The notes: generated by a model from the letters alone, not told the origin. Shown: positions 1 through 57,524, numbered from the whole stretch's first letter. The stretch is DNA of 63,043 bases, filler included, from Reclinomonas americana ATCC 50394 (GCA_048213135.1; 6 parts of 2 records of this genome joined end to end with filler, not necessarily neighbours in it), one strand, 5' to 3'. Translations and numbers: made by a program.

Positions 1-347
1 GCAGTGATACTGGTGGTGGTGACAGACGTGGAAGAAGAAGAAGAAGAAGAAGAAGAAGAAGAAGAGGCAGGCACTCGTCGCCTCGCCATCGCAGGCACAC
101 CACGATGAGCAGACGACCCCGATGCGCTCTTCTTCTTCTCCGCATCATCATCATCCTCGTTGATGTTGATGGAGAGAGAGGAGGAATGCATCATCATCAT
201 CGTCGTCAAATGCTGCTTGCTGTCGATGAGCATCATGTCTGCCTTCTCGTCGTCGCACGGAGAAGAGGCCGACATTGGCAGCGAAGGAGTTGTTGTTGTT
301 GTTGTTGTTGAGCGAGGACGAGGAGGAGGAGGACGGCGAGCGGCCAT
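1..347 (-). CDS. First exon of array gene copy A (runs off the window); 1 nt shorter than copy D, so possibly frameshifted
   Basis: ATG at 347 gives MAARRPPPPRPRSTTTT...DSKQ, homologous to copy D exon 1. AGCGCATCGGGTCGTCT here versus AGCGCATTGTGGTCGTCT in D. Confidence 0.65.
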   Translation of the reverse strand, partial: MAARRPPPPRPRSTTTTTTTPSLPMSASSPCDDEKADMMLIDSKQHLTTMMMMHSSSLSININEDDDDAEKKKSASGSSAHRGVPAMARRRVPASSSSSSSSSSSSTSVTTTSIT

Positions 348-1527: not shown

Positions 1528-4500
1528 CTACATGTATTCCTCCTCCTCCTCCTCCTCCTCCTCCTCCTTCTCCTCCTCCTCCTCCTCTTCCTCCTCCTCC
1601 TCCTTCTCCTCCTCTTTCTTCACCACCTCCATTTTCACCGGCTTCTCGTCGCCCACCACTGCATTCATGCTCGTCAGTGCTGATGCTCGCACAACATCCA
1701 ACAATTGCAGGTGCTCCCTGATCATCGAAGTTGGAGCACTCACCAGCACGCTCAATTTCCGCCTTTGAAAGGCAGCCGTCCCGAAGCAGAGTGGCCAGCA
1801 GGTCTGGACAGCCGTGGAGAGCCTGCATGGCCAGCGTAACGAATGGCGAAAGAGCATTAGGAGTGCCTCCCTTCTGCGACTTTGCAGCTGATTCCTGTCA
1901 TCCAAGCCACAGCAGTACTCGTGAGCCAGCTTTCAATGACGCGCATCAGCACACACAATTTCACACGCACCTGAGAGCGGCCACGTTCGTCAATCACAAT
2001 CAGTGGCTTCTCGACGGCATCCACCAGCTCAGCTCCCCGAAGACCACTCTTCTGATGGTGACATCCACGTCGAAGTCGAGTCAGGTACCACGCACAAAAC
2101 AATCGGAAGGATACCGAAACAACACACCGACACTCACCGCCCAAAACTGATTTGGGCGTCTTGCTGCGTGCTGCATTGGCACTATCGGCAAGACTCTTGC
2201 TGAATGCAGACATGACTGCGGCCGAAGGGCAGCCCCGTCCCTCAAACGGTATTCCGCATTCGTCACAGGCAAGTTGGAAGAGAACGCGCTGATGATGGAG
2301 GACTGTGGATGGCATCACCACGGGTGCCATGAGGCCAAATGCCTTCACCAGTATCCTCTTCTTGTTGCAACCCTGCTCCGAGGCAAGGTGACCAGATGGG
2401 AGTAACAGCATTGTCGGTGACATGCAGAGATGATAGCAACACGCAACAAACAGTCTCGCCAGCATCAGTTGCTCGTTGATGCTCAGCTTCACAGGATCAC
2501 TCTTGCGGAGCTGTGAAGCGCAATCCACACAGAGTTAGGACACGCATCTGTCTCGCATCTAACGGAAACGAGCGACGGGCGTACCTTGCCATCGTCCTCA
2601 TCCTCCTGCTCTTCCTCCCTCTTCTCCTCTTTCTTCACCATCTCCATCTCCCTCAGTGCTGTTCAGCCGTTGTTGAGCACATGCGCGCAGAGTGCAGCTA
2701 TTCAGGTCGCGCAGCCAAACCTCGTTTACTGCACCACTCGGCGGCACGTGCAATCTCTGCCTCGGACAGACAGTCGTCTCGGAGCAGAGTGGTCAGCAGG
2801 CCAGGACAGTTGTGGAGAGCTTGCATCGCCTGCGTGATGAATGGTTGATGGAGTGTCTGCTTGTTGTGCTGCACCCTCGCCAAGCGTGATGACTCCTGAC
2901 ACGCGAATTCCAGAACACAGAACGTGAGAATATGGCAGCCAATGTGTAAAACGCACACAGATCGCAAGACAGCCAACCTCCGAATAGCCACGTTCATCCA
3001 CCACAACCAGGGGTCTCTCAATGGCATTCGCCAGAGCAGCGCCACGCAGTTCACTCTTCTGCATAATTCCACACATACATTAGCGATGATATTGACTCAG
3101 TCGCGCGAAATGGACGCTGCTCACCTCGATAAAGTCGCTCATCATGTGGAGCACTCTTTCAACTGACTTGGGCGTGTTGGCGCGCACACCGTTGACGGTA
3201 TGGCCAAGACTCTTGCCGAATGAGCTCACGACCGCCGATGACAGGCAGCCTGCATTCGACGAAGGAACACCACACTCCTTGCATGCAAGATCAACAAGTA
3301 TTCGCTGATGACGGCAGATTGCGGATCCCATCACAATTGGTGCCATGATGCCAAACGTCATCACCAGTATCTTCTTCTTGTTGCAGCACTGCTCTCCCAT
3401 GAATTACATCGGTGGTGCGGTGAACACTCAATCAGCCAGAAAACTACAGAAGGAGGTCATGACTGCGTGCACACGCAACAAGTAGCCTCGCCAACATCAG
3501 TTGTTCGTCCTTGCTCATTGTGTGAGAATCACTCTCTTGTCGCTGTGAATGTGCAGCATGAGATGATGCCAGTATGCACTCACACCATCATTCATGGTCA
3601 TACCTTGCTCCTGTCACTCTCACCGACGTCGTCCTTCTCATCCTCCTCCCCGTCGACCCTCAAATCATCCTCCTCCTCCTTCCTCTCTTCTTTCTTCAGC
3701 ACCTTGGCCTCCAGCAGAGCTGCATCTCGTTCGTCAGCACTGACATTTCGCACAATAGAACGCACCCGATGTCATCCAACCTCTCTCACTGCACCACTCG
3801 ACGGCCCTTGCGATCTCCTCATCGGAGAGACAGCCGTCTCGAATCAGCAACGCTTGCAAGCCAGGACACTCACGCAGGGCCTGCGCGGCTTGGGCGACGA
3901 CCGGCAGGAGACGGTCTTTGTTATTCAGTGACTTCTCCATCATATTCCATGACTCCTGAAGCACGATCGACATCGTAAAAGAAGTGGGTGAGTGGACATA
4001 AACCGGAAAATGCCGAGACAACACAAAGGAAAGTTTGCACACCTCCGAATGGCCCCGCTCATCAACCACAATAAGTGGTCTCTCAATGGCATCCGCCAGA
4101 GCAGCGCCGCGCAGTTCACTCTTCTACAAGAGTTACATGTATTCATGCTGGTTCACTTTGCAGTCACGTGTAAGATGGATAACACAGACCTCGATGAGCT
4201 TGCTCATGCTCTGAAGCACTCCCTTAACTGATTTGGGCGTGTTGGTGCGTGACTTGTTGACTACATGGCCAAGACTCTTGCCGAATGAATCCATGACTGC
4301 GTGCGACGGACTGCCAGCTCCCGATGAAGGCATACCACACTCCTTGCAGGCGAGTTCAACGAGAACGCGCTGATGATGCCAGACAGTGCTTTGTCTCAGA
4401 ATCGGTGCCATGATACCGAATGCCATCACCAACAGCTTCTTCTTGTTGCACCGCTGCTCGCATACATTGACGCACGCATCAGGTGTCATTAAATGACAGG

Positions 4501-6478
4501 CAAGCACATGGCAAAGTGCAACTGATCTGCCTTGCTGGGGTATTGCACACGCAACGAGTAGTCTGCCCAGCACGATTCGGTCGTCCATGCTCAACTCCGC
4601 ATTGAATACATAGCGACTGCACGTGACGCGCTGCAAATACGCACCCCATGAGACATCAACCATCAACACAACTGCTTCCCAAGCCATACACAGACATTGG
4701 CATCATCGTACCTTGCTCGTCTTTGTTTCTTCATCATCATCACTTCCTGCATCCTCCTGTCAACGCAACGCATCAGCGCGTGGCCGAGTCCACGAAGACA
4801 CACTCAGTTTCCGTCATTCATGAACTGTTGATGCTCACCTTGGTGTCAACATCTTCATGCTTGATGTCATCGTCGTCTTTCTTCACCACCATTTTCACAT
4901 CGCCAGATTCTGCGTGGTGCTGGTCAACACCGGTGCAAGCAACAACAACCGACACATGAAGTTGCAGACCTTTTGATTGGCACCACGTGACGGCGCGTGC
5001 AATCTCGGCCTCAGAGAGGTGGTTGTCTCGAAGCAGAGTAGTCATGAGACCATCACACTCGCGCCATGCATCCATAGCCTCCGTGACAAATGGCTGAAGT
5101 TGGTCTCTCTGGGCCTTGTTCGCTGGAGACAGTCTCTTCCACGATTCCTATCTCGAACAAGCCGAGAGAATAAACGTCAGTCGGCATGATCACAACCAAC
5201 ACAAGATCGAGTAACATAAGCGCACCTCTGAATACCCGCGCTCATCTACCACAATCAGCGGTCTCTCAACGGCATCCACCAGAGCCGCGCCACTGAGCTG
5301 GCTCATCTGCAGATTGCAATCATCTGCACGTTGGTTCACATACCACAATCGTTATAGGCACTCACGCATGCTCACCTCCACATACCTACTCACGCTCAGG
5401 AGCACACCCTCAACTGATATGGGCATTTCACTGCGTGAGTGCATGGCAGTTCCGCAAAGCTTCTTGCCGAATGTACACTTGACTACAGACGACGAGCAAC
5501 CCGGCTCCGACGATTGAATTCTGCAGTCGTCGCAAGCAACGTCGAAGAGAACACTCTGATGGTGGATGACTGTGGATCCGTGAACACTTGATGCCATCAA
5601 CCCGAATGCCTTCACCAGGATCCTCTTCCGATTGCATCGCTGCGAGTGACAGGAGAAGAATGGTGAGTGCGACGAGGAGAAGTAGGAGGCTGAAGGCGTT
5701 GCAACGATGTCAGAGAAAGCATGCACACGCAACAAGCAGCTTGTTCAGCAACAGCTCCTCGTCTGCGCTCAACTCTGGCTCTTTTGCAGCTCGAGTCCTG
5801 ACACGCTGTGAATCCACAACATGCGTCATTGACACACAAGAACCCAAATGCACATCGATGAACAAGCACAACTATGCCAGCGACAGAGAATGCACACCTT
5901 CTTCTTCTTCTTCTTCTTCTTCTTTGGTGGTGCAAGCTCGTCATCGCTGGATGCATCAACCTGCGGAGAATGAATGAAACATCAGGTGTCAACTACCAAG
6001 CACAAGAGAGGGAGAGGCAAAGTGAGACGCGCGCCTCATCGGGGTTCACCTCGAGAGATCGTTTGCGGGCCGATATCTCAACTGAGTCACGTGCAGGCAA
6101 GTCCTCACTGTGATCAACCAGAGGCGAGTCGACTCGCTGCCTCCTCATACGTTGCTGTGCAATCATGCCAAGAGAGAAAAGAGAGAGAGAGAAAAGTGAG
6201 AGACATGCATATCTGGGGAAGGCACACACAATCACTGTACCTCGACGATGCCTTCCATCGCTGTGTGCTCCATGTGCTCCTGGTGAGTAGCTGTGTGCAT
6301 GCACCACCCAGGTGAGACACTACGTGACAAAAGAACACCAATGATTGCAGGAGAGACAGAATGAGACGCACCGTGCTCAGTGTGAATGTCCACGTCATTT
6401 CGAGCAGCGGCAATGGCGGCCGTGCTTTCGACAGCATGCTTCTTCTTCGTGTCCTTCAACATGCCAGCTGGTTCTGCA
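1528..6478 (-). CDS. Array gene copy B (exon 1 lost in gap): 4 copies of the ~200-aa domain; the last is an R4/R5 chimera with a 29-nt exonic deletion, so possibly a truncated gene or pseudogene
   Basis: Domain copies at ~4970-5804, ~3782-4630, ~2721-3542 and ~1744-2510. Motifs KILVKAFGLMAP, HHQRVL, CGIP, TPKSVE, RPLIVVDERGYSE and LLRDGCLS.AEIARAV.WC. Stop TAG at 1528-1530. Confidence 0.75.
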
Positions 6479-7540
6479 ACAGGGTATCGAAACAACGACA
6501 ATCCATGAAGAAAGAAGAAAAGAAGAAGAAGAAGAAGAAGAAAAAGAAGAAGAACAAGAACAAGAAGAAGAAGAAGAAGAAAAAGAAGAAGAACAAGAAN
6601 NNNNNNNNNNNNNNNNNNNNNNNNNNNNNNNNNNNNNNNNNNNTTAATTAATTAANNNNNNNNNNNNNNNNNNNNNNNNNNNNNNNNNNNNNNNNNNNNC
6701 GCGATCCAGCTGAAAACCACAACTCTGATCGCCATCTAGACTGCATGCCAATCGCACCCGCTGAGATGGTGTCGAGTGGTGGTGCAGGAGTATCAACAGG
6801 CCCAACAAAGCAGCATTGCCCGCTGCTCAATCCACATCGATCCACAGGAAATACGAGTCACTTGCACAATCTCGCGATGAGTCACACTCCTTCCCGCAGC
6901 TGCTGGTGGGCCATCATGCACCGCGGTGTACTGCTCTGCCGCTGCCATGAACACAGAAGAAGCAAGTGTCGCTGCTTTCGAATATAGCTGGCCTTAGTCA
7001 ACAACATAGCCATTCTCATGCAAATCACGACAGCAAATGCATGCCTCCGTGGCGGCTGCACGCACAACAGCAGCATTCATTCGCCTCCCAAGTCCAATGA
7101 AGGCCCCGGTTCCAATCCTTCACTCATCTTGCTCTTCCCCCTGCGACAACAACAGCAGTCAGCTGCATGCAGAGGAAAACACACATGCAGAGTCAATGCC
7201 TCACAACACACGGCAGTGGTTTAAAATACTGATGCACTGGGTTTCTGCTTCCTTCTTCTTCAAAAAGCTTTATCGACCTCACAACACCATGCATGCGCTG
7301 CTTGGCCAGTGAACCGTCTTCCCCTCTCTCATCCCACCCGCTGCCACTCACCCCCACTCTCTCGCCACGCACTGGNNNNNNNNNNNNNNNNNNNNNNNNN
7401 NNNNNNNNNNNNNNNNNNNNNNNNNNNNNNNNNNNNNNNNNNNNNNNNNNNNNNNNNNNNNNNNNNNNGTCCATCGACAGCAGCGTCTTGCTCTTCACAT
7501 CCAGCCCCTCCTCCTCCACCACCATCCTGAATTGCTTGCT

Positions 7541-10500
7541 CTACATGTATTCCTCCTCCTCCTCCTCCTCCTCCTCCTCCTCCTCCCCCTCCTCTTTCTT
7601 CACCGCCTCCATCTTCACCGGCTTCTCGTCACCCAACACTGTATTCATGCTCGTAAGTGTTGATGCCGGAACGACATCCAACAACAGCAGGTGCTCCCTG
7701 ATCGTCGCATTTAAAGAACTCACCGGCACGCTCGATCTCCGCCTTTGAAAGACAACCGTCTCGAAGCAGAGTGGCCAGCAGGCCAGGGCAGTTGTGGAGC
7801 AGATACGTGGATTGTGTGACAAAAGGCAGAAGAGCATTTGGGCCTCCCTTCTGAATGTGCTCGGCACATTCCTACAATCCGAGAAAAGCAAAGTAAGTCA
7901 GCATCGTCAAATCACAACAGCGTACACACAATCATGATTGACATGCCTCAGAGTGCCCACGCTCATCAATCACAATCAGTGGACTCTCGACAGCATCCAC
8001 CAGCGCAGCTTCTCGAAGACCGCTCTTCTAATGATTCCACGTGTACACAATGAAGGGCAGGTCAATTGCCACGCACACACAGGCGGATGTGCAACATAAA
8101 ACATCACACAGTCACTCACCTCGATGAAATCGCTCACGCTCTCGAGCACACCCTCAGTTGACTTCAGCGTCGTGCAGCGTGCCACCTTGGCACTGCCGGC
8201 AAGACTCTTGCCAAATGCAGCCATGACTGCGGATGATGGACTGCCCGGTCCCTTCGATGGTATGCCGCAGTCATCACAGGCAAGTTGGAAGAGAGCGCGC
8301 TGATGATGGAGGACTGTGGATGGCATCACCACGGGTGCCATGAGGCCGAATGCCTTCACCATCATCCTCTTCCTGTTACCGCCCTGCTCTCGGGTGTAAC
8401 AAATGGGTGGGAGCGAGTGAGGAGCCGACGATGACAGCAATGTCGGCGATACAAAGAACACGTAACAAGCAATCTCGCCAGCATCATTTGCTCGTTGATG
8501 CTCAACTTCGCAGGATCAATCTCGTGGCGCTGTGAAACACAGGCCACGCAGTGTTGAGAAGACAAGTCTCATGCATGACAAGTTCGCAGCGTCGGGCGTA
8601 CCTTCTTTCTCTTCGCGTTATCGTCCACATTCTCGCTGTCGCCATCATCTTCTTCCCGCTCATCCTTCCTCTCCTCCTCTTTCTCCATCATCTCCATCTC
8701 CCTCAGGGCTGTTCACTCACGTCTCAGTACAAGTAAGCAACAAAGCCACGAGCACAAGCAGCCAAACCTCTTTTACAGCACCACACGGCGGCACGTGCAA
8801 TCTCCGCCTGCGAAAGGCAGCCGTCTCGAAGCAGAGTGGTCAGCAGGTCTGGACAGCCGTGGAGAGCCTGTATGGCCTGTCTGACGTGTGGCGAAAGAAC
8901 ATTGGAAGCGCCTCGCTTCTGCGACTTTGCAAACTCCTACCATCCAGTGTGAGCCAGCTTTCAAAGCCGCACATCAATCAGCACACACAGTTTCACACGC
9001 GCCTCAGAGTAGCCACGTTCGTCAATCACAATCAGTGGTCTCTCGACGGCATCCACCAGCTCAGCTTCTCGAAGACCACTCTTCTGATGGTGACATCCAC
9101 GTCGAAGTCGAGTAAGGTACCACGCACATAACAATCGGAAGGATACCGAAACAACACACCGACACACTCACCTCTATGAAGTTGCTCATGCTCTCGAGAA
9201 CGCTCTCCACTGACTTGGGCGTCCTGCTGCGTGCGTTGAGGGCACTGCTGGCAAGAGTCTTGACAAATGCAGACAAGACTGCGGCCGAAGGGCAGCCCCG
9301 TCCCTCCAACGGTATTCCGCAATCGTCACAGGCAAGTTGGAGGAGAACGCGCTGATGATGGATGACTGTGGATCCCAACACCACGAATGCCATTAAACCG
9401 AATGCCTTCACCAGCATCCTCTTCTTGTCGCAACCCTGCTCCAAGGCGAGATGAGAAGATGGAAGTAACAGCATTGTCGGTGACATGCAGAGATAACAGC
9501 AACACGCAACAAGCAGTTTCGCCAGCATCAGTTGCTCGTTGATGCGCAGCTTCGCAGGACCACTCTTGCTGTGCTGTGAAGCGCAAACCACACAGAGTTA
9601 GGACACGCACTTGCCTCGCATCTAACGGAAACGAGCGACGGGCGTACCTTGCCATCGTCCTCATCCTCATGCTCTTCCTCCCGCTTCTCCTCTTTCTTCA
9701 CCATCTCCATTTCCCTCAGTGCTGTTCAATCGTTGCTGAGCACATGCGCACCCTGTGCAGCTATGCAAGTCACGCAGCCCAACCTCGTTCACCGCACCAC
9801 TCGACAGCACGTGTGATCTCTGTCTTCGAAAGACAGTCGTTTCGAAGCAGAGTGGCCAGCAGGCCAGGGCAATTGTGGAGAGCTTGCATTGCCTGCGTGA
9901 CGAATGGCTGAATAGGTGTCTGCCTGCTGCGCTGCATCGTCGGCAACTTTGACGACTCCTGACAACCAATTCCAGAACACGGAGCATGAGTATATGGCAG
10001 CCAATATGTACAACGAACACTGAGTGCAAGGCAGCCAACCTCCGAATAGCCACGTTCATCCACAACAACCAGGGGTCTCTCAATGGCATTCGCCAGAGCA
10101 GCGCCACGCAGTTCACTCTTCTGCATAATGCCACATACATTAGCGTTGATATTGATTCAGTCGAGTGAGATGGACGCTGCTCACCTCGATAAAGTCGCCC
10201 ATCATGTGGAGCACTCTCTCAACTGACTTGGGCGTGTTGGCGCGTACGTGTTGGACGACACTGCCAAAATTCTTGCCGAACGAGCTCACGACCGCCGACG
10301 ACAGGCAGCCTGCTTTCGATGAAGGAACACCACACTCCTCGCTTGCCAAGTCAAAAAGAATGCGCTGATGATGGCAGATTGTGGATCCCATAACCATCGG
10401 TGCCATGATGCCAAATGCCTTCACCAGTATCCTCTTCTTGTTGCAGCACTACTCTCCCATGAATCACATCGGTGGTGCGGTGAACACTCAAGATCAATCA

Positions 10501-13500
10501 GCCAGACGACTACCGAAGGAGGTCATGACTGAAATCAAACGCAACAAGTAGCCTCGCCAGCATCAGTTGCTCGTCCTTGCTCATTGTTGTTGGAGCAGTC
10601 CCTCGTCGCTGTGGATACTGTGAAGATATGCCACACTGTGCACCCGCCCCATCATTCATGGTCATACCTTGCTCCTGTCACTCTCACCCATGTCATCGTC
10701 CTCATCTTCCTCCCCGTCGACCCTCGAATCATCCTCCTCCTCATCCTCCTCCTTCATCTCTTCTTCCTTCAGCACCTTGGCCTCCAGCAGAGCTGCATCT
10801 CGCCTGTCAGCACTGACATTTCGCACAAAAGAACGCATTCGATGCAATCAAACCTTTTTCGCTGCACCACTCGACTGCCCGTGCGATCTCCTCATCGGAG
10901 AGACAGCCATCTCGAATCAGCGACGCGTGCAAGCCAGGACACTCACGCAGGGCCTGCGCGGCTTGGACGACGAGCGGCAGGAGAAGGTCGTTTCTCTTCC
11001 CTTTTTTCTCCATCATATTCCATGACTCCTGAAACACGTTCGACATCGTGAAAGAAACGGGTGAGTCGGCACAAACCAGGAAATGGGAAGAGCACACAAA
11101 GGAAAGTTTGCACACCTCCGAATGGCCCCGTTCGTCCACCACAATCAGTGGTCTCTCAATGGCATCTGCCAGAGCATCGCCGCGCAGTTCACTCTTCTGC
11201 AAGAGATTACATGCACTGACGTTGGCTCACTTTCCAGTCGCACCAGAGATAGACAGCACAGACTGATGCTCACCTCGATAAACTTGCTCATGCTCTGGAG
11301 CATTCCCTCAACTGATTTGGGCGTGTTGGTGCGTGCCATGTTGACGACATGGCCAAGACTCTTGCCGAATGAATCCATGGCTGCGGACGACGGACTGCCA
11401 GCTCCCGATGAAGGAATACCACACTCGTTGCAGGCGAGTTCAAAGAGAACTCGCTGATAATGCCAGACTGTGCTTTGCTTCGCAACTGGTGCCATGATAC
11501 CGAATGCCATCACCAACAGCTTCTTCTTGTTGCACCGCTGTTTTTCGCACACATCCACGCACGCACCAGGTGTTACGACAGTCAAGCACATGGCAGAGTG
11601 CAACTGATCTGCCTTGCTGGGGTATTGCACACGCAACATGCAGTCTGTCCAGCACGATTCGGTCGTCCATGCTCAAATCCGCATTGAATACATAGCGACC
11701 GCACTTGACGCGCTGCAAATACGCACCCCATGAGACATCAACTTATCACACAACTGCCTCCCAAGCCATACACAGGCGGCGACAACGCGGTACCTTGCTC
11801 GTCCTTGATTCTTCACCATCATCACTTCCTGCATCCTCCTGTGAAAGCAACGCATCAGCGCGTGGCCGAGACCACGAAGACACAGCCAGTCTCTGCCATT
11901 CATGAACTGTTGCAGCGCACCTTAGTGTCATCTTCTTCATGCTTGATGTCATCGTCGTCTTTCTTCACCACCATTTTCACATCGCCAAATTCTGCGTAAT
12001 GCTGGTCAACACCGATGCAAGCAACAACAACAGCCGCATGAAATCGCAGACCTTTCGCATGGCACCACGTGACGGCGCGTGTAATCTCGGCATCAGAGAG
12101 GTGGTTGTCTCGAAGCAGAAAAGTCAGAAGACCACCGCACTCGCGCATCGCCTCGATGGCCTGCTTGACAAACGGCTGAAGATGGTCCTTTCGAGATTTG
12201 TTTTGTGTTGTTAATATCTCCCATGACTCCTGCCAATGAAGCCGAGTGAGCGTAGACTATCGGCAGGATCGCAACCGACACATAAAATCGAGTAACATAA
12301 GCACACCTCTGAATACCCGCGCTCATCCACCACAATAAGTGGCCACTCAACAGTATCCGCCAGAGCCGCACCACTGAGCTGGCTCATCTGCATTGTGCAA
12401 TCATCTGCTTGTTGATTTACGTACCTTAATCGCCGCAGGGACACATGCATGCTCACCTCGATGCAGTTGCTCACGCTCTGGAGCACACCCTCAACTGATT
12501 TGGGCGTTTTGGTGCGTGAGTGCTCTGCGGTCTCCCCTAGCTTTTTCCCGAATGTGCACCTGACTGCACTTGAAGTACGACCCAGCTCCGACATTGGAAT
12601 CCCGCAGTCGTCGCAGGCCAGCTCAAAGAGAGCACTCTGATGGTGGATGACTGTGGATCCGTGAACACTTGATGCCATCAACCCGAATGCCTTCACCAGG
12701 ATCCTCTTCCGGTTGCATCGCTGTGTGTGATGTAAGAAGAATGCTGAGTGCGACGAGGAGGAGGAGGAGGCTGAAGGCGTTGCAACGATGTCAGAGAGAG
12801 CATGTCCACGCAACAAGCAGCTTGTTCAGCAACAGCTTCTCGTCTGTGCTCAACTCCACTGGAGTTTTCGCAGCTCGAGCATTGCCGAGCTGTGAATTCA
12901 CATCATGCGTCATTGACACACCAGAGAGCCCAAATGCAGATCGATGAACAAGTACAAGAATGTCAGCGACAGAGAATTCACACCTTCTTCTTCTTCTTTG
13001 GCGGTGCAAGCTCATCATCGCTGGATGCATCCACCTGCTGACAACGAATGATAACATCAGGTTACAACTGCCAAGGACGAGCGACAGGCAAAGAGAGACG
13101 CATGCCTCATCGGAGTTCACCTCCAGAGAACGCTTGCGGACCGATGTCTCAACTGAGTCACGTGCAGGCAAGTTCTCACTGTGATCCACCGGAGACGAGT
13201 CGACTCGCTGCCTCCTCGTACGTTGCTGTCAATCATGCCAAGAGAGAAAAGAGAGAGAGAAAAGTGAGAGACATGCATATCTGGGATGGCACACGAAATT
13301 ACTGTACCTCGACGACGCCTTCCATCGCTGTGTGTTCCATGTGCTCCTGGTGAGCAGCTGGGTGCATGCATCGCCAAGGTGAGACAGCACGCGACACGAG
13401 AACACCAATGACTGCAGGGGAGAGAGAGAAGAGAGACGCACCCTGCTCAGTGCGATTCTCCGCGTCACTTCGGGCAGCGGCAATGGCGGCTGTGCTCTCG

Positions 13501-13543
13501 ACAGCGTGCTTCTTCTTCTTGTCCTTCAACATGCCAGCTGGAT
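7541..13543 (-). CDS. Array gene copy C (exon 1 in gap): 5 copies of the ~200-aa domain
   Basis: Domain copies at ~12051-12890, ~10853-11712, ~9783-10608, ~8768-9574 and ~7724-8530. The exons I checked join in frame with GT/GC-AG boundaries. Stop at 7541. Confidence 0.8.
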
Positions 13544-15490
13544 CTGCAACAGGGAATGGAACAACGACAATACATCAGCAGGAAGAAGAAGGTATGAAAA
13601 GAAGAAGAAGAAGAAGAAGAAGAAGAAGAAGAAGAAGAAGAGCGAGGAGGAGGAGTGAGAAACGATGCACTCTCCATCATAATCATCATCATCACTTAGC
13701 ATCACATTGAGAGGAAAGCAGATGTGGAGCTCAACACAGTAACACAAGCACACGCAGAGAGGGAGGGAGGGAGGGAGGGAGTGCGCACAGCTGTGGCCAC
13801 ATGAATGGGCACAAAGAGTACAACGGCAACACACAAGTGCAACAGGCAAAAGCAGAAGGGAGAGNNNNNNNNNNNNNNNNNNNNNNNNNNNNNNNNNNNN
13901 NNNNNNNNNNNNNNNNNNNNNNNNNNNNNNNNNNNNNNNNNNNNNNNNNNNNNNNNNNNNNNNNNNNNNNNNNNNNNNNNNNNNNNNNNNNNNNNNNNNN
14001 NNNNNNNNNNNNNNNNNNNNNNNNNNNNNNNNNNNNNNNNNNNNNNNNNNNNNNNNNNNNNNNNNNNNNNNNNNNNNNNNNNNNNNNNNNNNNNNNNNNN
14101 NNNNNNNNNNNNNNNNNNNNNNNNNNNNNNNNNNNNNNNNNNNNNNNNNNNNNNNNNNNNNNNNNNNNNNNNNNNNNNNNNNNNNNNNNNNNNNNNCAAG
14201 ATCGGCTGAAAACCACAACCCTGATCGCCATCTAGACTGCATGCCAATCGCACCCGCTGAAATGGTGTCGAGTGGAGGTGCAGGAGTATCAACAGACCCA
14301 ACAAAGCAGCATTGCCCGCTGCTCAGTCCACATCGATCCACAGGAAACACAAGTCACTTGCACAATCTCGCGATGAGTCACACTCCTTCCCGCAGCTGCT
14401 GGTGGGCCATCATGCACCGCGGTGTACTGCGCTGCCGCTGTCATGAACACAGAAGAAGCAAGTGTCGCTGCTTTCGAATATAGCTGGCCTTAGTCAACAA
14501 CATAGCCATTCTCATGCAAATCACGACAGCAAATGCATGCCTCCGTGGCGGCTACACTTACAGCAACATTCATTCGCCCACCAAGTCAAATGATGGCCCT
14601 GGTTCCAATCTTCTTTCACTCAACTTGTTCTTCCTCCTGCGACAATAACAACATTCAGCTGCAAGGAGAGAAAACACACATGCAGAGTCCATCCCTCACA
14701 ACACAGGACAGCTGTTTAACGTACTGATGCACTGGGTTTCTGCTTCCTTCTTCTTCAACAAGCTTTATCGACCTCACAACACCATGCATGCGCTGCTTGT
14801 CCCGTGAATCCCTCTTCCCCTCTCTCGTCCGACCCGCTGCCGACTCATTCACACTCCCCCGCCACTCACCGANNNNNNNNNNNNNNNNNNNNNNNNNNNN
14901 NNNNNNNNNNNNNNNNNNNNNNNNNNNNNNNNNNNNNNNNNNNNNNNNNNNNNNNNNNNNNNNNNNNNNNNNNNNNNNNNNNNNNNNNNNNNNNNNNNNN
15001 NNNNNNNNNNNNNNNNNNNNNNNNNNNNNNNNNNNNNNNNNNNNNNNNNNNNNNNNNNNNNNNNNNNNNNNNNNNNNNNNNNNNNNNNNNNNNNNNNNNN
15101 NNNNNNNNNNNNNNNNNNNNNNNNNNNNNNNNNNNNNNNNNNNNNNNNNNNNNNNNNNNNNNNNNNNNNNNNNNNNNNNNNNNNNNNNNNNNNNNNNNNN
15201 NNNNNNNNNNNNNNNNNNNNNNNNNNNNNNNNNNNNNNNNNNNNNNNNNNNNNNNNNNNNNNNNNNNNNNNNNNNNNNNNNNNNNNNNNNNNNNNNNNNN
15301 NNNNNNNNNNNNNNNNNNNNNNNNNNNNNNNNNNNNNNNNNNNNNNNNNNNNNNNNNNNNNNNNNNNNNNNNNNNNNNNNNNNNNNNNNNNNNNNNNNNN
15401 NTGCAGGCATATATCATCGTCCATCGACAGCAGCGTCTTGCTCTTCACATCCAGCCCCTCCTCCTCCACCACCATCCTGAATTGCTTGCT

Positions 15491-18400
15491 CTACATGTAT
15501 TCCTCCTCCTCCTCCTCCTCCTCCTCCTCCTCCTCCCCCTCCTCTTTCTTCACCGCCTCCATCTTCACCTGCTTCTCGTCGCCCACCACTGCATTCATGC
15601 TCGTAAGTGCTGATGCTCGCACAACATCCAACAACAGCAGGTGCTCCCTGATCATTGAAGTTGGAGCTCTCACCAGCACGCTCGATCTCCGCCTTTGAAA
15701 GACAACCGTCTTGAAGCAGAGTGGCCAGTAGGCCAGGACAGCTGTGGAGCAGATACGTGGCTTGTGTGACAAAAATCAGAAGAGCATTTGGGCCTCCTTT
15801 CTGAATGTGCTCGGCACATTCCTACAATCCGACAAAAGCAAAGTCAGCATCGTCAAATCACAAAGGAACACACAGCCAGGGTCCACATGCCTCAGAGTAA
15901 CCGCGCTCGTTAATCACAATCAGTGGTCTCTCAACAGCATCCACAAGCGCAGCTCCTCGAAGTCCGCTCTTCTAATGACCCCGCATGCACGCAATGGCAG
16001 GCAGGTCAGTTGCCATGCACTGTGACACAGAAATGACAAACTCACACTCACCTCGATGAAGTTACTCACGCTCTCAAGAACGCCCTCAACTGATCTGGGC
16101 GTCTTGCGGCGTGCCGTGTCGGCACTGCTGGCAAGCCTCTTGCCAAATGCAGCCATGACTGCGGATGATGGACAGCCCGGTCCCTTCGATGGTATTCCGC
16201 AGTCATCACAGGCAAGTTGGAAGAGAGCGCGCTGATGATGGAGGACTGTGGATGGCATCACCACGGGTGCCATGAGGCCGAATGCCTTCACCAGAACCCT
16301 CTTCTTGTTACCGCCCTGCTCTCAGGTGTGACGGATGGGTGGGAGTGAGTGAGCAACAGCTTATGAAAGCAATGTCGGCGATACAGAGAACACGTAACAA
16401 GCAATCTTGCCAGCATCAATTGCTCGTTGATGCTCAACTTCGCAGGATCAATCTTGCGGCGCTGTCAAACACAGGCCACGCAGTATTGAGACGTACCTCA
16501 TGCATGACAAATAACGCAGCGTCGGGCGTACCTTCTTTTTCTTCGCGTCATCGTCCACATTGTCGCTGTCGTCATCATGTTCCTGCTCAACCTCCCTCTC
16601 CTCCTCTTTCTCCATCATCTCCATATCCCTCAGGGCTGTTCACTCATTTCTCAGCACACGTAAGCAACAAAGCCACGAGCACAAGCAGCCAAACCTCCTT
16701 CACTGCACCATTTGGCAGCACGTGCAATCTCCGCCTGCGAAAGGCAGCCGTCCCGAAGCAGAGTGGCTAGCAGGTCTGGACAGCCGTGGAGAGCCTGCAT
16801 GGTCTGGATAACGAATGGCGAAAGAACATTGGAAGCCCCTCGCTTCTGCGATTTTGCTGCCGATTCCTGCCATCCAAGCCACAGCAATGTGAGCCAGCTT
16901 TCAATGACGCACATCAGCAAACACAGTTTCACACGCACCTCTGAGTAACCACGGTCATCAAGCACAATCAGTGGCTTCTCGACGGCATCCACCAGCTCAG
17001 CTCCCCGAAGACCACTCTTCTGATGGTGACATCCAGTCAGGTACTACGCACATAACAATCGGAAGGACACTGAAACAACACACCGACACACTCACCTCTA
17101 TGAAGTTGCTCATGCTCTCGAGAACGCCCAAAACTGATTTGGGCGTCTTGCTGCGTGCTTTATTGGCACTTGTGGCAAGGCTCTTAACAAATGCAGCCAT
17201 GACTGCGGATGATGGACAGCCCGGTCCCTTCGACGGTATTCCGCATTCGTCACAAGCAAGTTGGAGGAGAACACGCTCATGATGGAGGACTGCGGATCTG
17301 AGCACGACGGGTGCCATCAAGCCAAATGCCTTCACCAGTATCCTCTTCTTGTTGCGACCCTACGCCAAGGCGCGGTGAGCAGATGGTAGTAACAGCATTG
17401 CCGGTGACGTGCAGAGATGATAGCAACACGCAACAAGTAATTTCGCCAGCATCAGATGCTCGTTGACGCTCAGCTTCCCAGGACCACTCTTGCGGCGCTG
17501 TGAAGCGCAATCCAATCAAAGTTAGGACACACACCTGCCTCGCATCTAACGGAAACGAGCGACGGGCGTACCTTGCCATCGTCCTCGTCCTTCTGCTCTT
17601 CCTCCCTCTTCTCCTCTTTCTTCACCATACTCACCTCCCTCAGTGCTGTTCCATCGTTGGTGAGCACATGCGCACACTATGCAGCTATGCAAGTCACACA
17701 ACCAAACCTCGTTCACTGCACCACTGGACAGCACGTGTGATCTCTTTCTTCGAAAAACAGCCGTCTCGAAGCAGAGTGGACATCAGGCCAGGGCAGTTGT
17801 GGAGAGCTTGCATTGCCTGCGTGACGAATGGCTGATGGAGTGTCTGCTTGTTGTGCTGCATCGTCGGCAACTTTGACGACTCCTGACACGCGAATTCCAG
17901 AACACGGAGCATGAGAATATGGCAGCCAATTTGAACAACGCACACTGAGTGCAGGGCAGCCGCACCTCAGAAATGCCACGTTCATCAACCACAACCAGGG
18001 GTCTCTCAATGGCATTCGCCAGAGCAGCGCCACGCAGTTCACTCTTCTGCATAATGCTACATACATTAGCGATGGTATTGATTCAGTCGAGTGAGATGGA
18101 CGCAGCTCACCTCGACAAAGTCGCTCATGGTCTGGAGCACTCCCTCAACTGACTTGGGCGTTGTGGTGCGTGCCTTGCTGACGGCATGGCCAAGGCTCTT
18201 GCCGAACGAGCTCACGACCGCCGACGACAGGCAGCCTGCTTTCGATGAAGGGATGCCACACTCCTGGCGTGTAAGCTCCACAAGAATTTGCTGGTGATGT
18301 GAGACTGTGCTCGGCATCACAATTGGTGCCATGATGCCGAATCCCATCACAAGTATCTTTCTCTTGTTGCAGCACTGCTTTCGCACGAAGCATACAGGTA

Positions 18401-21400
18401 GTGTAATGTATACAGTCAGCCAGACGATTCTTGAAGAATAACATGACTGCACACACACGTAACAAGCAGCCGTGCCAGCGTTAGTTGTTCGTCCTTGCTT
18501 ATTGTCGCAGAACCACTCCCTCGTCGCTGCGGATATACACCATGAGAACATGCCACGCTGTGCACTCGCCCCACAATCCATGTTCGTACCTTGCTGCTGT
18601 CACCCTCGTCGATGTCATTGTCTTCGTCTCCTTCCCCGTCCTCCTCCTCCTCCTCCTCCTCCTCCTCTTTCCTCTCTTCTTTCTTCAGCACCTTGGCCTC
18701 CAGCAGAGCTGCATGTCGTTCGTCAGCCCTGACCCGACGCACAGCAGGAGAACGCACCCGATGTCATCAAACCTCTCTCACTGCACCACTCGACGGCCCG
18801 TGCTATCTCCTCGTCGGAGAGACAGCCGTCTCGAATCAGCGACGCGTGCAAGCCAGGACACTCACGCAGGGCCTGAGCGGCTTGGACGATGAGCGGCAGG
18901 AGAAGGTCGCTGCCCTTCGGCTTCTTCTTCATCATCTTCCATGACTCCTGAAGCACGTTCGACATCGTGAAAGAAGCGAGTGAGTGGACACAAACCAGGA
19001 AATGTAGAAAGCACACACAGGATAGTTTGCACACCTCCGAATAGCCCCGTTCATCAACCACAATCAGTGGTCTCTCAATGGCATCCGCCAGAGCTGCGCC
19101 GCGCAGTTCACTCGTCTGCAAGAGTTACATGTATTAATGCTGGTTCACTTTGCAGTCACGTGTGAAAGGATAGCACAGATCGATGCTCACCTCGATGAAC
19201 TCGCTCATGCTCTGGAGTACTCCCTCCACTGACTTGGGCGTCGTGGCGCGTGTCATGTTGACGACACCACCAAGAGTCTTTCCGAATGAATCCGTGACTG
19301 CGGGCGACGGACTGCCAGCTCCCGATGAAGGAATACCGCACTCCTTGCAAGCGAGTTCAAAAAGTAGGCGTCGATGATGCAAGACTGTGTTTCGTTTCAG
19401 AATCGGTGCCATGATACCGAATGCCATCACCAGTAGCTTCTTCTTGTTGCACCGCTGTTTTTCGCACACATCCACGCACGCACTAGGTGTTATGACAGAC
19501 AAGCACATGGCAGAGTGCAACTAATCTGCCTTGCTGGGGTATTGCAGCACATAAACACGCAACAAGCAGTCTGTCCAGCACGATTCGTTTGTCCATGCTC
19601 AAATCCGCATTGAATGCATAGCGACCGCACTTGACGCGCTGCAAATACGCACCCCATGAAACATCAACTATCAACACAACTGCCTGCCAAGCCATTCACA
19701 CGCGGCGACAATGTCGTACCTTTCTCGAAATTGATTCTTCACCATCATCACTTCCTGCATCCTCCTGTGAACGCAACGCATCAGCGCGTGGCCGAGACCA
19801 CGAAGACACACCCAGTCTCTGCCATTCATGAACTGTTGCAGCGCACCTTGGTGTCATCTTCTTCATGCTTGATGTCATCGTCGTCTTTCTTCACCACCAT
19901 TTTCACATCGCCAGATTCTGCGTAATGCTGGTCAACACCGGTGCAAGCAACACCAACAGTCGCCCGAAGTTGCAGACCTTTCGACAGGCACCACGTGACG
20001 GCGCGTGCAATCTCGGCATCAGAGAGGTGGTTGTCTCGAATCAGAGCAGTCAGAAGACCACCACACTCGCGCATCGCATCGATGGCCTGCTTGACAAACG
20101 GCTGAAGATGGTCTTTCCTGGTCTTGGTTGCGTGATATAGTCTCTTCCAGGATTCCTGTCACAAACAACCAGTGCGCGAAGATCAGTCGACAAGATCACA
20201 ACCAACACAAGATCGAGTAACATAAGCACACCTCTGAATACCCGCGCTCATCAACCACTATCAGTGGTCTCTCAACAGCATCCACCAGAGCCGCGCCACT
20301 GAGCTGGCTTATCTGCATTGTGCAATCATGTGCATGTTGGTTCAATATGCCACGGTCGTCGCAACGCACACACTTGCTCACCTCGATATAGTTGCTCACG
20401 CTACGGAGCACACCCTCCACTGATTTGGGCATTGTGTGGCGTGAATCACTTGCAGTTTGACCAAGCTTCTTGCCGAATGCACACTTGACTGCAGAACACG
20501 TGCGACCCGGTGCCGATATTGAAATCCCGCAGTCGTCACAGGCAACGTCGAAGAGAACACTCTGATGGTGGACGATTGTGGACCCATGAACAACGGGTGC
20601 CATCAACCCGAATGCCTTCACCAGCACCCTCTTCCGATTGCATCGCTGTGAGTGATATAAGAAGAATCGTGAGTGCGACGAGGAGAAGGAGGAGGCTGAA
20701 GGGGTTACAATGATGTCAGAGAGAGTATGTACACGCAACAAGCAGCTTGTTCAACAACAGCTTCTCGTCTGCGCTCAATTCCTCTGGCATTTTCGCAGCT
20801 CGAGTCTTGCCTCGCTGTGAATCCACAACATACATCGTTGACCCGAATGAACGTCGACGAACAAGCACAACAATGTCAACACAGAATCAACCTTCTTCTT
20901 CTTCGTTGGCGGTGTAAGCTCGTCATCGCTGGATGCATCCAACTGCAGAGAATGAAAAACATCAGGTGTCGACTGCGAAGCACAAGAGAGAGGCAAAGAG
21001 TGACGCATGCCTCATCGGAGCTCACCTCAAGAGAACGCTTGCGGACCGATGTCTCAATTGAGTCACGTGCAGGCAAGTCCTCACTGTGATCTACCAGAGA
21101 CGAGTCGACTTGTCGCCTCCTCGCTCCTTGCTGTGCAATCATGCCAAGAGAGAGAGACAAGGTCAGTGAGAGACATGCTTATCTTGGGATGACACACAAT
21201 CAGTGTACCTCGACAATGCCTTCCATCGCTGTGCGTTCCATGTGTTCCTGGTGAGCAGCTGTGTGCATGCACCACCCAGGTGAGACACTACGTGACGCGA
21301 GAAAGGAGACAGAGAGAGACGCACCTTTCTCACTGCGATTCTCCGCGTCACTTCGGGCAGCGGCAACGGCGGCTGTGCTCTCGTCGGTGTGCTTCTTCTT

Positions 21401-22199
21401 CTTGTCCTTCAAGAGGCCAGCTGGTTCTGCAACAGGGAATTGAAACAACGAAGATCCATGAGAAGAAAGAAGAAGGAGGAGGAGCGGGAGAAGAAGGAGG
21501 AGGAGGAGGAGGAGAAAAGGATGAAGATGAATAAAGAGGAAAAGAAAGAAGAGGAAGAAGAAGAAGGAGATGCAGGAGGAGGAGATGAAGGAGGAGGAGG
21601 AGGAGGAGGAGGAGGAGGAGGGAGGGGAGGAGAGAAACGATGTACTCGCCATCATCATCATTTTCGCATTGAGGGGAAAGCACATGTGGAACTCAACACA
21701 GTTACACAAACACACACAGAGACAAGGAGAGGGAATACGAACTGCTGTGGCCATATGAAGGGCACAAAGAGTACAACGGCAACACACAAGTGCAACAGGC
21801 ACAAGCAGAAGGGAGAGAGATGAAACTCACACACACACACATACACACACACACACCTTTCTTGGCAGTGACACTGGTGGTGGTGACAGACGTGGAAGAA
21901 GAAGAGGACGAAGAAGAGGAGGAGACAGGCACTCGTCGCCTCGCCATCGCAGGCACACCACGATGAGCAGACGACCACAATGCGCTCATCTTCTTCTTCT
22001 CATCATCATCATTGATGTTGCTGGAGGGAGAGGAGGAATGCATTACCGTCATCGCCGTCGTCACATCCTGCTTGCTGTCGATGAGCATCGTGTCTGCTTT
22101 CTCGTCTTCGCACGGAGAAGAGGCAGACATTGACAGCGTAGGAGTTGTTGTTGTTGTGGAGTGAGGGCGTGGTGGAGGAGGAGGCCGACGAGAGGCCAT
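15491..22199 (-). CDS. Array gene copy D, complete: hypothetical nuclear protein of roughly 1,300-1,500 aa (estimate) with 5 tandem ~200-aa domains and acidic/Lys-rich linkers
   Basis: Phase-consistent exons 22199-21857, 21426-21325, 21258-21209, 21130-21026, 20942-20892 (LDASSDDELTPPTKKKK) and 20814-20740. Domains at ~19978-20814, ~18773-19638, ~17708-18526, ~16695-17497 and ~15674-16460. Last exon VVGDEKQVKMEAVKKEEG...EYM*. Confidence 0.82.
21460..21632. repeat. (GAA/GGA)n purine-rich microsatellite in intron 1 of the array gene (also 6505-6599 and ~13580-13655)
   Basis: Directly visible. Length differs between copies, and in copy B it abuts an assembly gap. Confidence 0.85.
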
Positions 22200-22445
22200 T
22201 CGTGTGTGTCTTGGTTGCTGTTCTACACACACGCGCGCGCCGCGTGATGCAAGAAACCAAGAGGTAAGTAAAGGGAGCGATGAAGATTCGTTGATCCGAA
22301 CAGCAAAGATGGAAGGTGACAAGTCGTGATGTGATGTGCAGCGAGGAATGTGGTGGGGAGAAGGGGAAAAGGGAGGAGAGAGTGGAGTATCAGAACTGGG
22401 CATCCCTGGGTGTATCCACGACTCGCCTTGTCACCATTTACCACA

Positions 22446-23409
22446 TCACGTCTCATACCTCGGAGCGCCCACCTGCCCCAACTCTCTCAACGGCTCACCC
22501 CTCGACGGTTCCCTCGACGAACCGCGCGATCGCTGCCCGCGCGTTGCCGACCCCGCCCTTCCTGTCGCCGTTCCAGCAGTGCCACCGGCCGCGGCCGTCG
22601 TTCCTGCCGGATACAAAAACGGCTTGTCCTCCTGCTTTGCCAGCAAATTGCGCTTCTCACGGGCGTTTTGCGCCTGTGCACGCTGCCGCTTGTCGGCCGC
22701 AATCGCATCCTCCCGCATCGTTGTCATCTGTCGCTGCTCGCCAACCGCCGTCTCGGCCGCCCGTCCTGCGCGGTGGTACAAGCAAGAGCGTGAGCATGCA
22801 AGTGGAAGCAAAAAGAAAATAGCCACAGCTGCAACGACGCAACTCTGCAGGCGATTGGTCTGCTCTTGCACACGCGCCGTCTGCTGTTGCTGCTGCCGTT
22901 GCCGCTCGCGCTGCATCTTGGCGTCGAGTGCCTCATGCGCCGCCATGGTCTGCCGTTCCACTTGCTCACGCTCCAGGCCGACTTCCTGGTTTCGCCAGTG
23001 TCTCTCCTCTGCAGGGCCGTTGATGAGCACAAGAAGTAACACGAGCTGCTATTCTCTTTTTCTAGTCAGTCCCCCCTCTACTTTCGNNNNNNNNNNNNNN
23101 NNNNNNNNNNNNNNNNNNNNNNNNNNNNNNTTAATTAATTAANNNNNNNNNNNNNNNNNNNNNNNNNNNNNNNNNNNNNNNNNNNNCAACCCACTGTTTC
23201 TGGAGTTCTTCTCCGTTTTCTCTCTCATAATCCTCGCTCAGGCAGTCGTCAGTCCTCTCGACTCTGGCCTCTAATTTCGCAACGCACAATTGTCTGGGAG
23301 TTCTTCTCCGGTTTCTCTCACTCTCTCTCTCACACACACACGCCATCTTTGCTCTGTCAGTCATCAGTCCCACTGGACTCTATAAGTCTTTCGGGACACG
23401 TCACTCATT

Positions 23410-23446
<37 letters not shown>

Positions 23447-25862: not shown

Positions 25863-26352
25863 TGCGAACAACATGATGAGGAAAAACAACAACAACGACA
25901 ACAAAGAGAGAAAGAGAGAGAGAGAGAGAGAGAAGAGAGAGGAGAGAGAGGCAGAGAGAAGAAGAGAGAGAGAGAGAGAGAGNNNNNNNNNNNNNNNNNN
26001 NNNNNNNNNNNNNNNNNNNNNNNNNNNNNNNNNNNNNNNNNNNNNNNNNNNNNNNNNNNNNNNNNNNNNNNNNNNNNNNNNNNNNNNNNNNNNNNNNNNN
26101 NNNNNNNNNNNNNNNNNNNNNNNNNNNNNNNNNNNNNNNNNNNNNNNNNNNNNNNNNNNNNNNNNNNNNNNNNNNNNNNNNNNNNNNNNNNNNNNNNNNN
26201 NNNNNNNNNNNNNNNNNNNNNNNNNNNNNNNNNNNNNNNNNNNNNNNNNNNNNNNNNNNNNNNNNNNNNNNNNNNNNNNNNNNNNNNNNNNNNNNNNNNN
26301 NNNNNNNNNNNNNNNNNNNNNNNNNNNNNNNNNNNNNNNNNNNNNNTTGCAG

Positions 26353-35300: not shown

Positions 35301-35468
35301 ACCTCAAGTGCGTTGTCGTCCCTCGCCTTCATTTTTGCTAATCTATCATTGACTCACACTCTCTTTCATTTGTGCCAGCATTTTCCGCGGCGCTCTGTCT
35401 CGCGTGCGTCCCGCTCAGGGCTTCACGCCGGTGGTGCAGCAGGCGGTCGCGCGTTCGTCTCGCCGCCG
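26353..35468 (+). CDS. Very large protein with N-terminal TPR repeats and dozens of IQ calmodulin-binding motifs (ASPM-like IQ array); both ends lie in gaps
   Basis: TPR-like segments AVTYNNLALYFKRRGKVSAAVRYAQRALKIE and CMTNHNLGCALDRLGRVDEALPYHELA. Repeated IQ motifs such as IQAAWRSF, IQAAFRGFLVR, IQATWRGY, LQRIARGFLAR and IQAAWRGLRLR across many short exons. Confidence 0.85.
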
Positions 35469-38414: not shown

Positions 38415-38528
38415 NNNNNNNNNNNNNNNNNNNNNNNNNNNNNNNNNNNNNNNNNNNNTTAATTAATTAANNNNNNNNNNNNNNNNNNNNNNNNNNNNNN
38501 NNNNNNNNNNNNNNGTTTGTTCGTTCTT

Positions 38529-54394: not shown

Positions 54395-54540
54395 NNNNNN
54401 NNNNNNNNNNNNNNNNNNNNNNNNNNNNNNNNNNNNNNTTAATTAATTAANNNNNNNNNNNNNNNNNNNNNNNNNNNNNNNNNNNNNNNNNNNNAGAGAC
54501 GAGTGCGTGTATGCAGGACGAGTCGGACGAGTGATCATCA

Positions 54541-57376: not shown

Positions 57377-57524
<148 letters not shown>

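Follow-up and report, generated by a model that had tools for sequence, protein, structure and literature searches.

A head-to-tail array of intron-rich genes, each composed of diverged copies of one protein module, was identified on the minus strand of a stretch of Reclinomonas americana ATCC 50394 DNA (GCA_048213135.1; 63 043 nucleotides analysed in full, in the following the window). The array covers positions 1–22199 and consists of three near-complete paralogues (genes A, B and C) and the first exon of a fourth (gene D), with five modules in A, five in B and four in C, i.e. 14 copies. We regard these as a real, selected coding family built by duplication on two levels, of modules within a gene and of whole genes, with a probability of about 0.9. 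The module itself matches no relative in any library searched; it is an orphan building block within a familiar genome architecture.

An initial annotation, made from the sequence alone, had proposed at least four head-to-tail genes with four to five modules each, sharing consensus motifs, at 1528..22199. The three genes and the first exon of the fourth agree with this layout, and the outer coordinates proved exact, 22199 being the ATG of gene A and 1528 the last base of the gene C stop codon. The consensus motifs are present in modular exons with conserved splice sites and phases.

Organisation of the array and gene models

The window DNA is eukaryotic, with short GT-AG introns and a G+C content of 52–62% (N-rich stretches excluded). 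The consensus motifs were met in minus-strand frames only, at about 1.7–20.7 kb of the window, and in a stop-to-stop frame listing they appeared as short open pieces, separated by gaps of 60–110 nt that start with GT and finish with AG. A profile of the 14 spliced modules recognised 45 stretches at an independent E-value <1e-3, all on the minus strand of 1–22300, and returned no matches at E≤10 in the remaining window or on the opposite strand. Gene models were homology-guided, i.e. based on splice junctions conserved among the copies:

15491..22199, minus strand: gene A, complete, with 31 exons, 1357 amino acids and five modules; ATG at 22199, stop codon ending at 15491
7541..13543, minus strand: gene B, at least 30 exons, at least 1244 amino acids and five modules; exon 1 in the N gap 13865–14196
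1528..6473, minus strand: gene C, at least 25 exons and four modules; stop codon ending at 1528, exon 1 lost at the spacer 6600–6699
3..347, minus strand: gene D, exon 1 only (MAARRPPPP...), ATG at 347; continues past the start of the window

The gene A model has no internal stop codons, 29 GT donors and one GC donor, and 30 AG acceptors, with introns of 59–430 nt (median 76). A second in-frame ATG is located upstream at 22403, and the frame is open over 22200–22403 (minus strand); the start at 22199 is the conserved ATG and not a proven start, and 22200–22403 is either 5′ untranslated region (UTR) or coding. Gene B parallels gene A exon for exon, likewise without internal stop codons, and its exon lengths are 0, 3 or 6 nt off those of A. 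The gene D region (1–577) shares 81% DNA identity with gene A (21865–22415), and the first-exon proteins are closely similar. For genome annotation, the locus is a 20-kb stretch of ~90 small exons; the search of protein collections did not recover their products.

The window is interrupted by artificial sequence:

6600–6699: artificial contig spacer, 44 N + TTAATTAATTAA + 44 N, with stop codons in all six frames
23087–23186, 38415–38514, 54395–54494 and 58616–58715: further identical spacers

Five identical spacers divide the window into six chained contigs, the order and orientation of which were inferred by the assembler. Consequently, the adjacency of genes B and C rests on scaffolding, as does the placing of the array next to the genes that follow 23186. 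Genes A and B belong to a single scaffold piece, in which sized N gaps (13865–14196 and 14873–15401) separate them, and genes C and D share one contig without gaps. The true gene copy number could exceed four.

The chaining of contigs by artificial spacers, and the location of the 5′-ends of B and C inside gaps, are the points in favour of an assembly artefact, in which alleles, or collapsed or expanded repeats, were joined by the scaffolder. We consider this most improbable, as the copies are ~15% apart in sequence and differ further by intron indels and module number, as C and D share a gap-free contig, and as A and B share a scaffold piece. The same ~15% divergence and differing module structure disfavour mis-assembled alleles, which the initial annotation had itself named among the findings that would refute it.

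The units have a similar segment past each stop codon, before the next gene:

14205–14869, minus strand: conserved intergenic segment
6709–7372 (91.6% identical) and 766–1435 (81–83%): its counterparts in self-BLASTN

This segment is conserved at 81–92% among the units, one pair being closer to each other than the coding exons are, and it may hold a promoter or the 5′ UTR.

Exon structure of the module

The module of 176–199 amino acids (185–199 in the five copies of gene A) is encoded by four exons, to which one or two exons for an acidic linker are added. The unit from exon 1 through the linker has phase 0 at both ends, and therefore modules can duplicate or drop out with the frame intact.

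19978–20814, 18773–19638, 17708–18526, 16695–17497 and 15674–16461, minus strand: modules A1 to A5
12052–12889, 10854–11712, 9784–10608, 8768–9573 and 7724–8529, minus strand: modules B1 to B5
4970–5805, 3781–4630, 2721–3542 and 1744–2510, minus strand: modules C1 to C4
20382..20645, minus strand: exon 2 of A1, as an example of the largest and best-conserved exon
18590..18708, minus strand: example of an acidic linker exon, ALLEAKVLKKEERKEEEEEEEEEDGEGDEDNDIDEGDSSK, starting in phase 1
20892..20942, minus strand: basic-motif exon before module 1 of gene A, LDASSDDELTPPTKKKK, resembling a nuclear localisation signal (NLS), from a three-way alignment with conserved AG/GT
12984–13034 (B) and 5898–5960 (C), minus strand: counterparts of the basic-motif exon (PPKKKKK...)
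15491..15588 (A), 7541–7638 (B) and 1528–1658 (C), minus strand: terminal exon, VVGDEKQVKMEAVKKEEGE(E)nYM*

Every one of the 14 copies has a short exon 1 (..LS..E..L..LL) ahead of exon 2. Exon 2 (CNKK..AFG.MAP..HHQ..CxxCG..FGK..TPKSVE..FIE) has exactly 88 codons (264 nt), bounded by AG and GT, in 13 copies, the exception being C4, and 14 of its 88 alignment columns are invariant. Exon 3 (..L.GAAL..A.ERPLIVVDERGYSE) has 27 codons in every copy. A pattern search located exon 4 (ES..PFV.QA..AL..CPGL..L.RDGCLS..EIARAV.WCSER) in all copies but one; that of B4, the 14th, was recognised from the open reading frame (ORF) list together with the alignment. Over the whole module, 33 of 199 columns are invariant and 75 are conserved at ≥80%, the invariant residues being mostly hydrophobic or Gly/Pro.

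An exon-4 donor (GTGAG) following ..EWC and one further nucleotide was dropped in favour of G|GTTTGG, 9 nt further downstream, which all 11 non-terminal modules have. The exon-3 donor reads GC instead of GT in three of 14 copies, on the minus strand at 7946 (B5), 9002 (B4) and 15890 (A5); with the frame intact, these are probably used as GC-AG introns. Modules are connected by one linker exon, or by two between modules 1 and 2. Linker splicing was modelled by enumerating frame-compatible combinations, which gave one and the same answer for the 1–2 and 2–3 junctions of all three genes, and for the 4–5 junction of A and B. Between modules 3 and 4, a GTTTCC donor led by ~0.3 score units in each of the three genes; the conserved GTACGC donor was picked by hand instead. 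At the terminal junction, A, B and C share a G|GTGAG donor behind ..AEIERA, an intron of 85 nt, and a conserved stop codon.

Two structural candidates found no support at this level. A short-period solenoid (leucine-rich repeat (LRR) including Cys-containing types, or HEAT/TPR/PPR-like) disagrees with the lack of internal periodicity: hhalign self-comparison of the 14-module profile detected no internal repeat inside the module (best off-diagonal probability 1.4%), and the only LRR protein touched was COI1, at E 1.3. A zinc-binding site of His2-Cys2 type, in line with the metal binding by HH and CxxC which the initial annotation had suggested, is not supported, since the four ligands are complete in only 10 of the 14 modules and only the second Cys is invariant. 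The first Cys is replaced by R in A3 and by S in B3, and HH reads HY in B2 and RH in C3.

Two-level duplication and remodelling of gene C

Self-BLASTN of the array gave two classes of offset. At the gene level these were 7950 bp (A/B, 85.2% identity over 6214 nt), 7045 bp (B/C, 84.9% over 4907 nt) and 14972 bp (A/C, 83.1%), and at the module level a period of ~1.04–1.08 kb with 67–75% nucleotide identity. Protein identity was 73–86% between modules of equal position in different genes, and 48–74% (mean 56%) between different positions within a gene. In the maximum-likelihood tree the modules clustered by position, not by gene, with support values of 100 (positions 1, 2 and 5), 98 (position 3) and 84/82 (position 4 with C4), which indicates that a five-module gene predates the gene duplication. 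Expansion at both domain and gene level, as claimed initially, is supported by this tree: modules multiplied within the gene first, and whole genes later.

Gene C was remodelled in addition. Exons and introns of C4 are 85–95% identical to position 4 versus 60–87% to position 5 (exons 1 and 2 are not discriminating), the introns alone 88–95% versus 60–69%, and the end of C4 is of the position-5 type (..SKAEIERA, donor, terminal exon). The combination of a position-4 body with a position-5 end indicates that one module of gene C was deleted when exon 4 of position 4 recombined with that of position 5. Furthermore, exon 2 of C4 is shortened:

2139..2175, minus strand: 3′-end of C4 exon 2 with a 29-nt deletion

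When the canonical donor at 2138 is used, this deletion shifts the frame, and a stop codon follows 7 residues on at ..KSVLGEEWSSGS*, after 905 modelled residues. The frame is kept only by retention of intron 2, with a read-through ORF at 2534..1860. 

The history of the locus thus comprises four steps. A phase-0-to-phase-0 set of five or six exons was first duplicated within one gene, giving five module copies, followed by duplication of the whole gene by unequal crossing-over, at a synonymous divergence (dS) of ~0.23–0.25 between copies. Copy C then dropped one module, its positions 4 and 5 having recombined, and gained the 29-nt frame-breaking deletion. Purifying selection, which is only moderate, holds the copies open, at a ratio of nonsynonymous to synonymous divergence (dN/dS) of ~0.45–0.5. 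The locus is a clear example of modular protein growth, combining a phase-symmetric exon set, gene duplication and remodelling by unequal recombination.

Coding status and selection

Length differences between exons were multiples of three without exception (30 of 30 for A–B, 21 of 21 for B–C), when 8 of 29 and 8 of 20 intron differences, respectively, were not. In simulations, 424 random coding substitutions, equal to the observed exon differences, introduced on average 15.5 stop codons, and none of 5000 runs stayed open. The comparison of dN/dS across copies, which the initial annotation had proposed as a check, gave 0.47 for A–B (1106 codons), 0.45 for B–C (733) and 0.51 for A–C (733), with dS of 0.23–0.25, and indicates moderate purifying selection. 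For exon 2, dN/dS was 0.36–0.80 between genes and 0.21–0.48 between module positions, and the differences in eight orthologous exon-2 pairs were distributed over the three codon positions as 96, 79 and 141.

Other observations weigh against this reading. Exons of A and B are 88.6% identical, barely above their introns (87.1%), which together with dN/dS of ~0.5 implies weak constraint on the protein sequence; and gene C may be defective, i.e. truncated or decaying, unless its 29-nt deletion is a sequencing error. The same near-equal divergence and dN/dS, joined by the module loss and the frame-breaking deletion in C, would be expected of a decaying or unexpressed remnant, in which pseudogenes are kept similar by gene conversion. 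Such a remnant is nevertheless improbable, because A and B are open over at least 1244 codons at ~11% divergence, where chance would have produced ~15 stop codons, and because all exon length differences keep the frame while those of introns do not. Besides, all modelled splice sites of A and B have an AG acceptor and a GT or GC donor. We take the sequence comparison to reflect a frame and fold that are kept while the sequence drifts; gene conversion could contribute as well.

Search for relatives

Homologues were searched for with single-exon or read-through pieces of the modules, not with full spliced modules, and single-sequence Pfam scans of such partial modules are insensitive. Within this scope, Pfam returned no families at E≤1 for four exon-2 pieces and none at E≤0.01 for two read-through ORFs (exons 1–3 and 2–3), and 23 pieces of exons 3–4 gave only E-values of 0.03–0.14, none at the gathering threshold. 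NCBIfam had nothing significant for the module pieces, and PHROGs no matches for six pieces. Against PDB sequences (hmmsearch, cut-off E≤0.001), the exon-2 profile had no matches at E≤10, the best E-value of the exon-4 profile was 0.72, and that of the exon 3–4 profile was 0.12, in an alignment running partly across intron-coded columns.

In an exhaustive HMMER search of 1.84 billion protein representatives with a 13-copy exon-2 profile, no credible relative was found; two matches were internally repetitive proteins in which many short stretches matched, and were judged spurious. Word-indexed searches against longer proteins yielded none for one exon-2 piece and none for the 14-copy exon-4 profile. 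Among metagenome contigs, 416 pattern matches were obtained and none confirmed, and among viral contigs 44 and none. The protein atlas gave no usable match for exon 2, and for exon 4 only scores of 0.78–0.79. A full-text literature search on descriptive terms matched no paper; as it was not sequence-based, the family may be in print. The initial statement that the domain could not be matched to a named family accordingly held in all libraries searched.

A gene for the conserved CFAP99 (cilia- and flagella-associated protein 99) was recognised beside the array:

23364–26449, minus strand: CFAP99 gene; best relative 47% identical (a jakobid, then oomycetes and others), with no self-hit

As CFAP99 reached at most 47% identity and did not hit itself, the host proteome and those of close relatives are absent from the collections, and the lack of homologues is in part a matter of sampling. 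The result is only consistent with a lineage-specific module family, as judged from sequence. Orphan fast-evolving families are common in protists. The biological weight of the finding is moderate; it would gain in interest if the full module were a new fold, or if the proteins were major chromatin components.

Predicted fold of the module

AlphaFold2 was applied to two natural in-frame read-throughs, A1 exon 2 + intron 2 + exon 3, and A2 exon 3 + intron 3 + exon 4. The resulting partial models include 23 and 29 intron-coded residues, with mean predicted local distance difference test (pLDDT) scores of 61.5 and 55.0. In the A1 model, five helices extend over exon 2 (pLDDT 64–86) and exon 3 is unplaced, and in the A2 model exon 4 forms three helices (pLDDT 53–67). 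On these models, the module looks predominantly helical. Foldseek of the partial models against PDB gave a best E-value of 1.8 (HIV capsid, template-modelling (TM) score about 0.2), BFVD a best E-value of 1.9 and nothing at E≤0.001, and two VIA-wide structural searches with the partial models gave background only. Since the models are partial and of low confidence, this structural null says little about the true fold.

Exon 4 gave recurrent hints below threshold: in Pfam, wHTH_TTC3 (E 0.059), HTH_24 (E 0.11, 2 of 23 pieces) and Penicillinase_R (E 0.14), and in the protein atlas, as the nearest clusters, DUF2582, a winged-helix family (score 0.79, below significance). Its ..LL..L.RDGcLS..EIARAv pattern resembles the 'gLS..EIA' turn of many helix-turn-helix (HTH) proteins. 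The module may accordingly be a very diverged or composite version of known folds, e.g. a helical bundle with an HTH or winged helix in exon 4. We hold this to be quite possible, if less than likely: the weak exon-4 hints all agree, and the structural null does little to oppose them, the folded pieces being partial and including intron-coded residues. A diverged known fold would be compatible with either a nuclear or a non-nuclear protein.

The further-reaching proposal, that the module is a new all-helical domain without a relative in ~15 billion predicted proteins, and defines lineage-restricted multivalent nuclear proteins, is unlikely. Under it, the proteins would for example act in chromatin packaging, or as histone or ribosomal-protein chaperones, with birth and death on the two levels of module and gene. 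Were the fold truly new, a domain family from a poorly sampled eukaryotic lineage would be missing from the databases.

An origin from a transposable element or virus, e.g. as a Gag- or capsid-like helical protein, was suggested by HIV-1 capsid chains in the top Foldseek rows and by one piece touching the Pfam family CxC2 (KDZ-transposase associated; E 0.044). With E-values of 1.8–9 and TM about 0.2 for the capsid chains, both values are at noise level, and PHROGs (six pieces), BFVD (at E≤0.001, with partial models of low confidence) and the viral contigs supplied no relatives. The head-to-tail genes have conserved spliceosomal introns, and the scanned pieces contained no transposase, integrase or reverse transcriptase domain. 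Such an origin is thus very improbable.

Protein composition and putative function

The predicted products are soluble proteins of ~1000–1360 amino acids. From the N-terminus, that of gene A has a Ser/Thr/Pro-rich low-complexity region, KDKKKKH, SSDDELTPPTKKKK, five modules with linkers, and a tail ending in ..KKEEGEEEEEEEEEEEEYM. A basic SSDDEL-PP(T)KKKK motif is thus situated before module 1, and B and C read PPKKKKK at the position of SSDDELTPPTKKKK in A. The linkers are strongly acidic with K/R runs at the end (..AKKKK|RRK..), e.g. the linker ALLEAKVLKKEERKEEEEEEEEEDGEGDEDNDIDEGDSSK listed above or ..DDDAKKKK followed by RRK.., and the tail is poly-Glu. As for the linkers described in the initial annotation, their acidic and K-rich nature between modules was verified, and the PPKKKK motif, which had been placed ahead of the linkers, occurs once per gene, before module 1 (PPTKKKK in gene A). 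D+E account for 15–17% and K+R for 14–15% of the residues, and basic runs of the gene A product are at residues 123, 214, 912 and 1137. A classically secreted family of effectors or surface antigens was rejected for want of an N-terminal hydrophobic signal peptide: on reading, without a dedicated predictor, neither gene A (MASRRPPPPPRPHSTTTTT..) nor gene D (MAARRPPPPRPRSTTTT..) showed a hydrophobic core at the N-terminus.

On composition only, a role as nuclear acidic/basic scaffold is proposed tentatively, at somewhat short of even odds. The proteins would enter the nucleus through their KKKK/RRK motifs, and would act as multivalent scaffolds or chaperone-like binders of basic proteins (e.g. 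histones or ribosomal proteins) or of nucleic acid, in which the helical modules would be the specific and the poly-acidic linkers the charge-driven binding units. Several features speak against a nuclear scaffold. KKKK runs and acidic/basic low-complexity linkers occur in non-nuclear proteins too; the first ~30 residues are rich in R/S/T/P with no acidic residue, so that an organellar targeting peptide is equally possible; the top hydrophobic window of 19 residues, which recurs in each module (ILVKAFGLMAPVV.., Kyte-Doolittle 1.86), is a borderline membrane helix; and the recognition helix of an HTH-like exon 4 would run into the acidic linker, which argues against direct DNA binding.

The same selected genes could instead encode extranuclear proteins, either organelle-targeted or abundant as cytoplasmic, cytoskeletal or extrusome structural components, with the array serving high expression. 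The N-terminal composition is like that of transit peptides or presequences, no DNA- or RNA-binding family was detected among the scanned pieces, and highly expressed structural genes are typically arranged in tandem. This alternative is only slightly less probable than a nuclear scaffold; against it, several K/R runs resemble classical nuclear signals, poly-Pro at residues 6–10 would be unusual in an amphipathic presequence, and a structural-protein family was likewise undetected.

Likeness to known systems

Macrosatellite-type arrays consist of kilobase-scale units each with a whole gene, e.g. D4Z4/DUX4 and USP17. The R. americana array is similar in having head-to-tail whole genes with their flanks, in a unit of 7.0–7.95 kb, and in changing number by unequal recombination. 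It differs in that the copies are old (dS ~0.23–0.25, ~15% DNA divergence), intron-rich and individually selected, and contain an internal module array.

Nucleolin, Nopp140 and nucleoplasmin-type chaperones are acidic/basic nucleolar or chromatin proteins. The predicted products share with them an alternation of poly-acidic and K-rich stretches, as well as runs of Ser, NLS-like KKKK and motifs of the SSDDE type. However, the RNA recognition motif, the nucleoplasmin core and the like were undetected (in exon 1–4 pieces only), the modules are helical and of 190 amino acids, and the likeness is thus compositional only. To HTH and winged-helix families (HTH_24 PF13412, DUF2582 PF10771, wHTH_TTC3 PF24812), exon 4 is similar by its HTH-like pattern and three AlphaFold2 helices, but it had no match at curated thresholds, its putative third helix continues into the acidic linker, and the module of ~190 amino acids is far larger.

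Oomycete (L)WY-repeat effectors are rapidly evolving proteins built of all-helical modules in tandem. The array genes share with them such modules, paralogues in clusters and a relaxed constraint, but they have no signal peptide, many introns, a 190-residue module without periodicity, and no database similarity.

Neighbouring genes and other features of the window

The presence of CFAP99 indicates that the organism is flagellated. Other features outside the array were the following:

~26650–35340, plus strand: long gene with many IQ motifs for calmodulin binding (Pfam IQ, 5e-20) and an N-terminal part that is TPR-like
~39000–54000, plus strand: large multi-exon DNA-PKcs gene (Pfam DNA-PKcs_N 9e-24, and FAT domain 3.6e-08 in another exon)
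43926–43998, plus strand: tRNA-Ile (anticodon UAU; Rfam 69.7 bits), within the DNA-PKcs span and probably intronic
57300–58200: long (TG)n and TACG-type microsatellites around an N gap

The IQ-rich gene is reminiscent of ASPM-type proteins. None of the neighbours (CFAP99, the IQ/TPR gene and DNA-PKcs) suggests a functional link to the array. The microsatellites at 57300–58200 translate as CVCVCV.. and YVRTYVRT...

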